Of a DNA stretch of 64,000 nt, positions 13,537-63,541 are shown piece by piece. The stretch lies in NCBI RefSeq assembly GCF_016026235.1, contig NZ_CP065613.1. One strand, 5' to 3'. A program made the translations under genes and the position numbers. Numbering within the stretch: the stretch's first letter is position 1; each line of letters starts with the position of its first letter. Below the pieces are notes generated by a model. It saw nothing but the letters and a program-made list of their open reading frames with translations, was not told the DNA's origin and searched no databases. This stretch comes from Escherichia coli (lineage in GTDB: Bacteria > Pseudomonadota > Gammaproteobacteria > Enterobacterales > Enterobacteriaceae).

Positions 13537-13673
13537 ACGACCTCCCTTTGTGAAATATCATGCTAGCGCGCGGTGAGGGATGGCGCAAATGGAGTTGGGG
13601 ACTTGTTTAATGTGTTTGTATGATTCAGTATGTTCTTGTATCGCTATTCACAGGGAAGCAACAGTTAAAAACT

Positions 13674-14015
13674 ATGAAACAGGCAACAAGAAAACCGACG
13701 ACACCCGGAGATATTCTTCTCTATGAATATCTGGAACCGCTCGCTTTGAAAATCAATGAGTTAGCAGAGTTGCTGCATGTTCATCGTAATAGCGTCAGTA
13801 CACTGATCAATAATAATCGTAAACTCACCACTGAAATGGCATTCCGTCTGGCGAAAGTTTTTGATACCACAGTCGATTTTTGGCTAAACCTTCAGGCGGC
13901 AGTTGATCTTTGGGAAGTTGAAAACAACATGCGCACCCAGGAAGAATTGGGACGGATTGAAACAGTGGCTGAATATTTGGCACGCCGTGAAGAGCGTGCA
14001 AAAAAGGTCGCGTAA
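13674..14015 (+). CDS. ybaQ: HigA-like XRE-family HTH DNA-binding protein (solitary antitoxin-like regulator)
   Basis: 113-aa ORF from MKQATRKP; helix-turn-helix with C-terminal HigA-type region; upstream in-frame ATG at 13620 is probably not used. Confidence 0.8.
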   Translation: MKQATRKPTTPGDILLYEYLEPLALKINELAELLHVHRNSVSTLINNNRKLTTEMAFRLAKVFDTTVDFWLNLQAAVDLWEVENNMRTQEELGRIETVAEYLARREERAKKVA

Positions 14016-14330: not shown

Positions 14331-16835
14331 TTATTCCTTCGGTTTAAACCGCAGCAACCGGTTGGCGTTACTCACTACGGTAATCGACGAGAGCGCCATT
14401 GCCGCTCCGGCAACTACCGGGTTAAGCAGTGTTCCAGTAAACGGCCACAAAATACCGGCGGCGACCGGAATACCGATACTGTTGTAGATAAACGCGCCGA
14501 GCAGGTTCTGCTTCATGTTGCGCAGCGTTGCGCGGGAAATAGCGAGCGCATCCGCAACGCCCATCAGGCTATGGCGCATCAGGGTAATCGCCGCGGTTTC
14601 AATAGCAACATCACTGCCGCCACCCATCGCAATGCCGACATCCGCCTGAGCCAGCGCTGGCGCGTCGTTAATGCCGTCGCCCACCATTGCCACCTGACGT
14701 CCTTCACTTTGCAGGCGTTTAATCGCTTCGGCTTTACCGTCCGGCAGCACCCCGGCTATCACCTCATCAATCCCTGCTTCTTTGGCGATTGCATTGGCGG
14801 TGGTTGGGTTATCCCCGGTCAACATCACCAGACGATATCCCGCTTTATGCAGGCGTTGCAGCGCCGCCACGCTATCACTACGCAATGGATCGCGTACAGC
14901 CAGCAGGGCTACCGCTTTCCCGTCAACCGCCAGCAGCACAGGCGTTGCCCCTTGCGATGCCTGAGCAGTAATCTCCGCTTCGATAGCTTTGGTATCAACC
15001 TGTTGCTCATTTAACAACGCCTGATTACCCAGCAATAACGCATGACCTTCTGCTTCACCGCTCACGCCCAGCCCGCGCAATGTGCGGAAATCGTTGACCT
15101 GCGGCAGCTGCATATCGCCTGCTTTATCGAGGATCGCTCGTGCCAGCGGATGGCTGGAACCTTGCTCCAGCGCCGCCGCCAGACGCAATGCTTGCGCTTC
15201 ATCAACATCAGCAAATGTTTTTACTGCGACAACCTGCGGCTTCCCTTCGGTCAGCGTCCCGGTTTTATCGAACACTACGGTATCGAGTGTACTGGCGCGT
15301 TGCAGCGCGTCGGCGTCCCGCACCAGCACGCCAAACTCAGCCGCCCGCCCGACGCCGGAAATAATCGACATTGGCGTCGCCAGCCCCAGCGCACACGGAC
15401 AGGCAATAATCAGCACCGTGGTGGCTATCACCAGGGTATAGACAATCTGCGGTGCCGGACCAAAGAAATACCAGATTGCTGCACTGATCAGCGCAATCAC
15501 CACTACTACCGGCACAAATACGGCTGAGATTTTATCCGCCAGCTGACCGATTTCTGGCTTGCTGCTCTGGGCCTGGCGCACCATGCGAATGATCCGTGAC
15601 AGCGTGGTATGGCTGCCAACCGCACTGGCACGAAACAGCACACTGCCGTCCTGTACCACTGTCCCGGCATGGACGCTATCGCCTTCGCCTTTTTGCTGCG
15701 GGATTGGTTCGCCCGTCAGCATCGCTTCATCCAGCCATGCTTCGCCCTGGGTAATCTCACCATCTACCGGCACGCGATCGCCGGTCGTCAGGCGCAGTAA
15801 CATCCCAGGCTGAACTTCCGCCAGCGGCACGCTTTTTTCACCCTCTGCGGTGACCACTCGCGCCGTCGGTGGGGTTAAATCGAGTAATTTCTCCAGCGCC
15901 TTAGAAGAACGCTGACGCGCGCGCGCTTCCAGCATATGGCCGAGATTAATCAGACCGATAATCATCGCACTGGCTTCATAGTAAAGATGCCGCGCTTCCA
16001 TCGGGAACCACTGCGGCCACAGGTTGACGCTCATCGAATAGAGCCACGCCACACCCGTACCCAGCGCCACCAGCGTATCCATCGTCGCCGCACCGTTCAG
16101 CAGGCTTTTCCACGCGCTGCGGTAAAAATGGCCGCCGGCGAAAACCATTACCGCCAGGGTTATCAGGCCGATAACTAACCACAAGCTGCGGTTGTCAGCG
16201 GTGACCATCATGTTATCGCCGATCATCCCCCAGACCATTACCGGGATACCCACAGCCAGTGCAACAATTGCCTGCCAGCGGAAGCGCTTCATCGTAGCTA
16301 CGGCGGTTTCTTGCTGGCGCTCGCGGCGTTTAGCGTCATCTTCAATCGCTTCCGCACCGTAGCCCGCTTTTTCCACCGCCTGCACTAAATCTTGTGGGGA
16401 GGCACTGCCCATCACCAGCGCAGTACGCTCCGCCAGGTTTACCCGTGCCTGAGTGACGCCCGGTACGCTTTGCAGCGCATTTTGTACGCGGGTGACACAG
16501 CTGGCGCAGCTCATGCCGCTCAGCAGCAACTGCTGGCTGTCATCGTCATCGGCGGTCGCTGCCGGAAGCGCCTCAGAAACCGCTGTCAGTGCTTCCGACG
16601 GGATTGATGACTCCGCCAGCGGTTTAGCCTTTGGGTGGCTTACAGATGCGTCATAACCCGCTTGTTTGATGGTTTCGATCAGCTGTTCTGCACTGGCAGT
16701 CCCGGTAACGTGCGCTTCAGTGATAGACACATCCGCTTGTTCCACATCCGGGCGCTGTTCGAGACTTTCTTTCACGCGTTTAACGCAGTGACCGCAGGAC
16801 AGGCCGTCCAGGGTCAGGTCGATAGTTTGTGACAT
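14331..16835 (-). CDS. copA: Cu(I)-exporting P1B-type ATPase
   Basis: 834-aa ORF with two N-terminal GxxCxxC metal-binding domains, CPC, DKTGT and GDGxND motifs. Confidence 0.97.
16629..16635 (-). other. copA: Slippery heptamer C_CCA_AAG inside copA (programmed -1 frameshift site yielding the CopA(Z) chaperone)
   Basis: Heptamer at codons H-P-K about 69 codons into copA; a -1 shift reads CCC AAA GGC TAA, terminating immediately; matches the described copA frameshift as I recall it. Confidence 0.6.
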
Positions 16836-16874
16836 AAAACACTCCTTTAAGACAGTTTTGACTGGCTGTGATAA

Positions 16875-16905
16875 AGGTTAAACCTTCCAGCAAGGGGAAG
16901 GTCAA
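16875..16905 (-). promoter_or_regulatory. copA promoter with CueR (MerR-type) operator: TTGACC -35, 19-bp spacer containing CCTTCC-N7-GGAAGG, TAACCT -10
   Basis: Inverted repeat ccttccagcaaggggaagg at 16883-16901 sits inside a 19-bp spacer, the hallmark of MerR-family promoters; cueR is encoded nearby. Confidence 0.8.
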
Positions 16906-17096
16906 GAAATTAATAAACCAGGCGAGTAAAAGTCCGTAAAGATTAAAAAATTGGCTCAATTTGCATCAGGATTAGACATTTATCTCTTTGTTTTCCTGTA
17001 GTTAAGTTGCGGGTGCTAAGTTAAATCAGGATGCCTGAAAATCGGCACCGGGGTGAGGAATTACCTCCCGCATCTATAAAAAGGAGTTAACAAAAG

Positions 17097-19448: not shown

Positions 19449-19856
19449 ATGAACATCAGCGATGTAGCAAAAATTACCGGCCTGACCAGCAAAGCCATTC
19501 GCTTCTATGAAGAGAAGGGGCTGGTGACGCCGCCGATGCGCAGCGAAAACGGTTATCGCACCTACACGCAGCAGCATCTCAACGAACTGACCTTACTGCG
19601 CCAGGCACGGCAGGTGGGCTTTAACCTGGAAGAGAGCGGCGAGCTGGTGAATCTGTTTAACGACCCGCAGCGGCACAGCGCCGACGTCAAACGGCGCACG
19701 CTGGAGAAGGTGGCGGAGATCGAACGACACATTGAGGAGCTGCAATCCATGCGCGACCAGCTGCTGGCACTGGCGAATGCCTGCCCTGGCGATGACAGCG
19801 CCGACTGCCCGATTATCGAAAATCTCTCCGGCTGCTGTCATCATCGGGCAGGGTGA
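19449..19856 (+). CDS. cueR: Cu-responsive MerR-family transcriptional regulator
   Basis: 135-aa ORF with N-terminal HTH and C-terminal CxxxxxxxC metal-binding loop. Confidence 0.95.
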
Positions 19857-62007: not shown

Positions 62008-63015
62008 ATGAAGATAATCTGCAGATTATTATTGGCAATGGCATGTTTGTGTCTGGCAAACATATCCTGGGCTACTGTTTGTGCAAATAGTACTGGCGTA
62101 GCAGAAGATGAACACTATGATCTCTCAAATGTCTTTAATAGCACCAATAATCAGCCAGGGCAGATTGTTGTTTTACCGGAAAAATCCGGCTGGGTAGGTG
62201 TGTCAGCAATTTGTCCACCCGGCACGCTGGTGAATTATACATACCGTAGTTATGTCACCAACTTTATTGTTCAGGAAACTATCGATAATTATAAATATAT
62301 GCAATTAAATGATTATCTATTAGGTGCGATGAGTCTGGTTGATAGCGTGATGGATATTCAATTTCCCCCGCAAAATTATATTCGTATGGGAACAGATCCT
62401 AACGTTTCGCAAAACCTTCCGTTCGGGGTGATGGATTCTCGTTTGATATTTCGTTTAAAGGTTATTCGGCCCTTTATTAACATGGTGGAGATCCCCAGAC
62501 AGGTGATGTTTACCGTGTATGTGACATCAACGCCTTACGATCCGTTGGTTACACCTGTTTATACCATTAGTTTTGGTGGCCGGGTTGAAGTACCGCAAAA
62601 CTGCGAATTAAATGCCGGGCAGATTGTTGAATTTGATTTTGGTGATATCGGCGCATCGTTATTTAGTGCGGCAGGGCCGGGTAATCGACCTGCTGGTGTC
62701 ATGCCGCAAACCAAGAGCATTGCGGTCAAATGTACGAATGTTGCTGCGCAGGCTTATTTAACAATGCGTCTGGAAGCCAGTGCCGTTTCTGGTCAGGCGA
62801 TGGTGTCGGACAATCAGGATTTAGGTTTTATTGTCGCCGATCAGAACGATACGCCGATCACGCCTAACGATCTCAATAGCGTTATTCCTTTCCGTCTGGA
62901 TGCAGCTGCGGCAGCCAATGTCACACTTCGCGCCTGGCCTATCAGTATTACCGGTCAAAAACCGACCGAAGGGCCGTTTAGCGCGCTGGGGTATTTACGC
63001 GTCGATTATCAATGA
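62008..63015 (+). CDS. sfmH: Fimbrial adhesin-like subunit
   Basis: 335-aa ORF with signal peptide (FimH-like two-domain architecture). Confidence 0.85.
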   Translation: MKIICRLLLAMACLCLANISWATVCANSTGVAEDEHYDLSNVFNSTNNQPGQIVVLPEKSGWVGVSAICPPGTLVNYTYRSYVTNFIVQETIDNYKYMQLNDYLLGAMSLVDSVMDIQFPPQNYIRMGTDPNVSQNLPFGVMDSRLIFRLKVIRPFINMVEIPRQVMFTVYVTSTPYDPLVTPVYTISFGGRVEVPQNCELNAGQIVEFDFGDIGASLFSAAGPGNRPAGVMPQTKSIAVKCTNVAAQAYLTMRLEASAVSGQAMVSDNQDLGFIVADQNDTPITPNDLNSVIPFRLDAAAAANVTLRAWPISITGQKPTEGPFSALGYLRVDYQ

Positions 63016-63025
63016 GGTACGGAGA

Positions 63026-63541
63026 ATGAGAAGAGTACTCTTTAGCTGTTTCTGCGGGCTACTGTGGAGTTCCAGTGGATGGGCAGTTGACCCTTTAGGA
63101 ACGATTAATATCAATTTGCACGGTAACGTTGTTGATTTCTCCTGTACCGTAAACACAGCGGATATTGATAAGACGGTAGATTTAGGCAGATGGCCTACGA
63201 CACAATTACTGAACGCTGGCGATACCACGGCACTCGTCCCTTTTAGCCTGCGGCTGGAGGGATGTCCTCCGGGTTCAGTTGCGATTTTATTTACGGGAAC
63301 GCCGGCATCTGATGCCAACCTGCTGGTTCTGGATGATCCCGCAATGGCACAAACCGTTGCCATCGAATTACGTAATAGCGATCGCTCCCGGCTCGCACTG
63401 GGGGAGGCGAGCCCGACTGAGGAAGTAGATGCAAATGGCAATGTCACACTAAACTTTTTTGCCAATTATCGAGCGTTAGCCAGCGGTATTCGGCCAGGTG
63501 TGGCGAAAGCGGATGCGATATTTATGATCAATTATAATTAA
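63026..63541 (+). CDS. sfmF: Fimbrial minor subunit
   Basis: 171-aa ORF from MRRVLFSCF (GAGG RBS), 10 bp after the sfmH stop. Confidence 0.85.
   Translation: MRRVLFSCFCGLLWSSSGWAVDPLGTININLHGNVVDFSCTVNTADIDKTVDLGRWPTTQLLNAGDTTALVPFSLRLEGCPPGSVAILFTGTPASDANLLVLDDPAMAQTVAIELRNSDRSRLALGEASPTEEVDANGNVTLNFFANYRALASGIRPGVAKADAIFMINYN

Follow-up and report, generated by a model that had tools for sequence, protein, structure and literature searches.

Only three chromosomal programmed frameshifts of Escherichia coli are well characterised, and copA carries one of them, the others being in dnaX and prfB. All three are treated as established cases in the literature (PMC6771820, PMC10861913, a 2025 preprint). 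According to PMC9548414, efficient frameshifting on E. coli copA was discovered and characterised by Meydan et al. 2017 and independently confirmed by Drees et al. 2017, and ribosome profiling supports it, with density falling after the -1 stop. PMC9548414 and PMC7558416 credit the same two studies with detecting the 70-aa product and with showing that it depends on the heptamer. A single-molecule study has addressed the copA pseudoknot and its stem 1 and stem 2 variants (PMC6182138). A parallel frameshift claim for human ATP7B has been rejected (PMC9548414). For the short product, CopA(Z), the literature describes Cu(I) binding and a role in copper tolerance or delivery to CopA (PMC6771820, PMC6747150), and CopZ-like chaperones are described as proteins of about 70 aa (PMC7558416). 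The RefSeq record of K-12 MG1655 (NC_000913.3) holds a two-piece CDS of copA named 'soluble Cu(+) chaperone' (YP_009518752.1), whose 212 nt amount to 71 codons minus one re-read base.

The frameshift site and its product

We analyzed a stretch of E. coli DNA of 64,000 nucleotides (hereafter, the window) in which copA lies on the minus strand (Table 1). The initial annotation had placed a C_CCA_AAG heptamer at 16629-16635, about 69 codons into copA, and left the strand unstated; its other details were accurate. We found CCCAAAG as the reverse complement of these positions, at a 0-based ORF offset of 200. The heptamer covers Pro68 and Lys69 and is in the X_XXY_YYZ register (register 2), with the 0-frame reading CAC|CCA|AAG|GCT|AAA (His67-Pro68-Lys69-Ala70-Lys71). 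After a slip, the -1 frame reads CCC AAA GGC TAA, exactly as had been proposed, with the stop three codons past the slip start (16626..16624).

Translated from the window, the short product has 70 aa (MSQ...SVSHPKG) and is identical to YP_009518752.1, whose span corresponds to 16835..16624 here and which ends ...CACCCAAAGGCTAA. The expectation that a product of roughly 70 aa would comprise the first metal-binding domain was correct. Pfam assigns a single complete HMA domain to it (PF00403, residues 8-62, corresponding to profile positions 3-62 of 62), with E = 1.2e-13 and 51.7 bits against a cut-off of 24.8. The metal-binding motif is C14-G-H-C17 (CxxC), within GLSCGHC. The nearest solved structures are copper ATPase metal-binding domains and CopZ chaperones, the latter matched at E = 1e-4 to 1e-5.

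Table 1 Features of the copA locus, in window coordinates
Feature	Position	Strand	Basis
Stem 2, 3' arm GCUUCCGGC, 3' of the stem 1 3' arm	16561..16569	minus	Inverted repeat, conservation
Stem 1, 3' arm: CUG (16589..16587), one mismatch, core CAGCGG (16585..16580)	16580..16589	minus	Inverted repeat, conservation, RNAalifold
Stem 2, 5' arm GUCGGAAGC	16591..16599	minus	Inverted repeat; contains CGGAAGC
Stem 1, 5' arm: core CCGCUG (16622..16617), one mismatch, CGG (16615..16613)	16613..16622	minus	Inverted repeat; RNAalifold; core invariant in 81 sequences
-1 frame stop TAA, overlapping 0-frame GCT|AAA	16624..16626	minus	Read from sequence; position fixed in 81/81
Slippery heptamer C_CCA_AAG (last base of His67, Pro68, Lys69)	16629..16635	minus	Register and conservation in 81/81
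CopA(Z) coding span, 212 nt: codons 1-67 in frame 0, then CCC AAA GGC TAA	16624..16835	minus	Matches YP_009518752.1
copA, Cu(+)-exporting P-type ATPase, full-length 0-frame product, 834 codons	14331..16835	minus	ORF list; E. coli genomes annotate as copA
copA promoter, MerR/CueR-type: TTGACC (16905..16900), 19-nt spacer with dyad ACCTTCC-N7-GGAAGGT, TAACCT	16875..16905	minus	Read from sequence
cueR	19449..19856	plus	ORF list

Of 5426 complete E. coli genomes, 5422 contain a 601-nt stretch around the site, with a copA annotation every time. The copA gene of the window and that of K-12 differ at 78 nt and 7 aa, and none of these differences falls within nt 100-479, the region of the cassette. 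In all, the heptamer at 16629..16635 almost certainly belongs to the cassette for programmed -1 ribosomal frameshifting in E. coli copA, which yields CopA(Z). This reading, which the initial annotation had put forward, is supported by the occurrence of the stretch in E. coli genomes under copA, by the identity with YP_009518752.1, by the literature, by selection on the signals across 80 species and by the HMA domain of the product.

The mechanism would run as follows. Having finished the first HMA domain, ribosomes would reach C_CCA_AAG with tRNA-Pro on CCA in the P site and tRNA-Lys on AAG in the A site. E. coli has a single tRNA-Lys, with the anticodon UUU, and its pairing with AAG is weak, which makes heptamers that end in A_AAG particularly prone to slippage. 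About 6 nt past the heptamer, two interleaved stems would form in the mRNA, CCGCUG.CGG/CUG.CAGCGG and GUCGGAAGC/GCUUCCGGC, and the resulting pseudoknot would resist unwinding; in -1 frameshifting, an RNA structure at the mRNA entrance hinders translocation. Some ribosomes would slip back by one base, their tRNAs re-pairing, as we infer, on CCC and AAA. These ribosomes would read GGC and then TAA and release CopA(Z), a free Cu(I) chaperone of 70 aa that resembles CopZ, while ribosomes that do not slip would make the full 834-aa pump. Actual slippage, its stimulation by the pseudoknot and the nascent chain, and the role of CopA(Z) in copper tolerance are taken from the literature.

Chance expectation, conservation and synonymous constraint

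To put the heptamer in context, we counted such patterns in the window. CCCAAAG occurs 7 times, with 8.7 expected. Using the 54 longest non-overlapping ORFs of the window as gene proxies, we found 34 in-register X_XXY_YYZ heptamers; in 9 of them, a -1 stop follows within three codons. Among these 54 ORFs, C_CCA_AAG is in register only at the copA site. Because the heptamer occurs at its chance count and near -1 stops are common, the pattern alone is not evidence. Interleaved perfect stems, found at about five places within copA, are not specific by themselves either. As judged from the alignments described below, it is cross-species conservation, not the heptamer string, that raises the copA site far above chance.

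The survey also returned A_AAA_AAG, which is the shiftiest pattern in E. coli. One in-register copy lies near the C terminus of ybaQ (ORF 13620..14015, plus strand), at codon 128 of the proxy and three codons before its end, with a -1 stop five codons on. A second one is at codon 3 of the ORF 62995..63465 (minus strand), with a -1 stop three codons on; the start codon of this ORF was set mechanically.

For the comparison across Enterobacterales, species-representative genomes were scanned with the first 328 CopA residues, and the best 80 matches, which range from Escherichia albertii to Pantoea and Erwinia, were taken together with the window. The copA genes of these matches are 71-93% identical to that of the window at the nucleotide level. 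The set thus comprises 81 sequences, and 80 genes are full length. An in-register C_CCA_AAR is present in 81 out of 81 sequences (78 CCCAAAG and 3 CCCAAAA), and a -1 stop lies exactly three codons past the slip start in every one of them (TAA in 55, TGA in 26). The codon for Pro68 is CCA in all 80 full-length genes. The codon preceding it has C as its last base throughout, including where His is replaced by Phe or Ser. The same holds for the two codons that overlap the -1 stop: codon 70 encodes Ala, Thr, Ser or Pro and is always NNT, and codon 71 encodes Lys, Asp, Glu or Asn and is always RAN.

The three sequences with C_CCA_AAA belong to Superficieibacter electus, Pluralibacter gergoviae and Tenebrionibacter intestinalis (loci L018, L039 and L077, at locus position ~2701), and they retain the -1 stop three codons on.

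We scored synonymous change as observed versus expected differences over all sequence pairs in a codon alignment of the 80 full-length copA genes. The lowest-scoring intervals of the gene fell within codons 66-92 at every width used (5, 9, 15 and 25 codons). For 25-codon intervals, the observed/expected ratio there was ~0.18-0.2, against a gene-wide median of ~1.0. Third codon positions were invariant at 14 out of 28 codons in the stretch 66-93 versus 24 out of 816 elsewhere (Fisher p = 2.8e-13), a comparison within one tree in which shared ancestry acts on both classes alike. The five longest invariant nucleotide runs of the 2.5-kb alignment were CGGAAGC (the longest in copA), CTTCCG, CAGCGG, CCGCTG and CCCAAA, that is, the heptamer and four segments that pair as two interleaved downstream stems. 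For instance, Leu90 is CTT and Pro91 is CCG in all 80 full-length genes. The heptamer, the -1 stop and the two stems are thus under strong purifying selection at synonymous sites.

Some neighboring positions also vary little. Synonymous variation is low at the AGC directly 5' of the heptamer, and the observed/expected ratio is ~0.2 at UCA UCA (codons 76-77), which lies in loop 1 of the pseudoknot and is part of a possible third helix (see below). In the acidic linker that follows the pseudoknot, both E. coli sequences (the window and L075) have an extra Asp codon, codon 96 (GAT, ~16548..16550, minus strand), relative to the other 78 full-length genes.

Predicted RNA structure and flanking signals

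The initial annotation had suggested a stimulatory structure in the RNA downstream of the heptamer. Nested folding gave no sign of one, as the 89 nt downstream of the heptamer folded no better than shuffled sequences (z = -0.72), while two conserved interleaved stems, a computational prediction, agree with the suggestion. The minimum-energy nested fold keeps stem 2 and drops stem 1 because ViennaRNA cannot score pseudoknots. A repeat finder returned a pair of perfect inverted repeats, AAACCGCTG/CAGCGGTTT and CGGAAGC/GCTTCCG, with arms that alternate along the mRNA, and this interleaving predicts an H-type pseudoknot. The core of stem 1 begins 6 nt past the heptamer, within the distance of about 5-9 nt expected of a stimulatory structure. 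A single, variable junction base (16590, the third position of Ala82) separates the 5' arm of stem 2 from the 3' arm of stem 1.

A 9-bp version of stem 1 that can be drawn for E. coli (AAACCGCUG/CAGCGGUUU) was discarded. Its three A-U pairs are not conserved, being paired in only 11-35 of 73 sequences. RNAalifold replaces them with a 3-bp extension at the opposite end, C-R-G/C-U-G, which is kept in all sequences. In the refined stems, 99.8% of the cells from 73 distinct sequences hold standard pairs, compared with 17-46% after shifting the partners by 1-3 columns. Stem 2 is paired in 99.5%, with the variants U.G/C-G/U-A and G-C/G-U. Variation in the stem stretch is limited to a few columns, namely the junction base, both mismatch positions and pair-compatible changes (A-U/G-U/G-C, G-C/G-U and U.G/C-G/U-A). 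On the opposite strand, the frequent U.G pair would turn into an A.C mismatch, and the structure was therefore assigned to the copA sense RNA. We infer the exact base-pairing model of the stems given in Table 1.

Covariation in the stems gave no significant signal among the 73 distinct sequences and did not exceed the shuffle controls. Meaningful covariation is missing because the stems are almost invariant, and the structure therefore rests on conservation and published work, not on compensatory change. In a search of window positions 16300..17000 against Rfam 15, with hits admitted up to E = 1, no family matched the frameshift element of copA. Enterobacterales share this element with hardly any variation, and aligning it for an RNA model would be easy.

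A third helix around stem 2, GUCAUC (16606..16611) with GAUGAC (16539..16544) on the minus-strand RNA, was also considered. A complement of at least 6 nt is present in only 50 of the 80 species and is absent in the distant ones, so the helix was not taken as part of the core.

Upstream of the heptamer, no Shine-Dalgarno-like stimulator was found within 22 nt in Escherichia copA, and GGAG is absent at window positions 16644..16657. Across the whole set, a Shine-Dalgarno-like tetramer lies upstream of the heptamer in 38 out of 81 sequences, and in 33 out of 81 it is GGAG, 8 nt upstream (Citrobacter, Klebsiella, Enterobacter and others; for instance L003:253-256). This GGAG resembles the stimulator of dnaX and could alter frameshift efficiency between genera.

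The copA promoter (Table 1) is one that we take to be controlled by CueR, from what is known of the copA promoter. A consensus promoter scan missed it; the scan admits only spacers of 16-18 nt, and the spacer here has 19 nt.

It is unlikely, though conceivable, that conserved parts of the cassette beyond the slippery site, the pseudoknot and the nascent chain tune frameshift efficiency by lineage or condition. We raise this reading because of the low synonymous variation at UCA UCA and AGC, the -1 stop at a single position, and the lineage-specific GGAG (33 sequences) and CCCAAAA (3 species). For UCA UCA, AGC, the fixed stop, GGAG and CCCAAAA alike, the evidence here is neutral as to a regulatory role.

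Alternative explanations and related systems

The conserved RNA structure could serve chiefly another role, for instance in the formation or stability of a short copA transcript, or as a ribosome pause site that assists membrane targeting or the folding of the first domain, and the frameshift would then be secondary. We consider this very improbable. The title of Drees et al. 2017 does name 'differential transcript formation' besides frameshifting (as cited in PMC9548414 and PMC7558416), and the stems are conserved without covariation that would tie them to any one function. A role of this kind would nevertheless leave unexplained the register in 81 out of 81 sequences, the CCA codon in 80 out of 80, and a stop that stays at one position, with two different stop codons, despite changing 0-frame amino acids. 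Our terminator scan also found no terminator-like site on the copA strand in the first 600 nt of the gene. According to reviews, the literature reports that synonymous mutants of the heptamer alone lose the 70-aa product with transcripts unchanged. Another role for the structure is compatible with frameshifting, and both can coexist.

The short product could also arise if RNA polymerase, rather than the ribosome, slipped at CCCAAAG, since a transcript lacking one base would encode the identical product ending in SHPKG and a stop. For slippage by the polymerase to be productive, longer homopolymer runs are required, as a rule of 7 or more A/T, whereas the copA site has merely CCC and AAA. A conserved pseudoknot at a spacing of 6 nt is, moreover, the signature of ribosomal -1 frameshifting, and the event is described as ribosomal (PMC9548414, PMC10861913, PMC7558416). 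We regard polymerase slippage as a highly improbable source of CopA(Z).

The coincidence of a heptamer and a -1 stop that have no function, to which the chance frequency of CCCAAAG and the 9 near stops among 34 in-register heptamers in 54 ORFs might point, has a negligible probability and is refuted by the invariance of heptamer, stop and stems in 80 species whose copA genes are otherwise 71-93% identical, by the strongest synonymous constraint of the gene falling on this site and by the experimental reports (PMC9548414, PMC7558416).

The programmed ribosomal frameshift on copA is already published and annotated, and its description here adds no new biology. The site is useful as a positive control, as a true recoding site that was recovered from raw sequence and is invisible to the ORF track. 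Its signature combines an in-register heptamer, a -1 stop at a fixed position and stem arms that do not vary, which together show the strongest synonymous constraint in the gene, and it can be used as a template for testing other candidate heptamers.

The closest described system is the E. coli copA/CopA(Z) system itself (Meydan et al. 2017, Mol Cell 65:207; Drees et al. 2017, Mol Microbiol 106:635), with which the window shares the locus, the heptamer, the stop and the product. There is no difference of substance from the published K-12 system, as the nucleotide and amino acid changes between the two genes all lie outside the cassette.

The dnaX gene (tau/gamma) is alike in having a chromosomal -1 shift, an X_XXY_YYZ heptamer ending in A_AAG, a downstream RNA structure, a near-immediate -1 stop and a shorter functional protein. 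In dnaX, the heptamer is A_AAA_AAG, a stem-loop takes the place of the pseudoknot and a Shine-Dalgarno-like stimulator lies upstream. This upstream stimulator has no counterpart within 22 nt upstream in Escherichia copA. The two genes are also named side by side in the literature (PMC10861913).

As a protein, CopA(Z) resembles the stand-alone CopZ/Atx1-type chaperones (HMA domain, ~70 aa, CxxC) in its length of about 70 aa, its single HMA domain and its GLSCGHC motif. Those chaperones are encoded by separate genes, whereas CopA(Z) is recoded from the first metal-binding domain of the transporter itself, and the copA frameshift thereby accounts for a copper chaperone in E. coli without any copZ gene.
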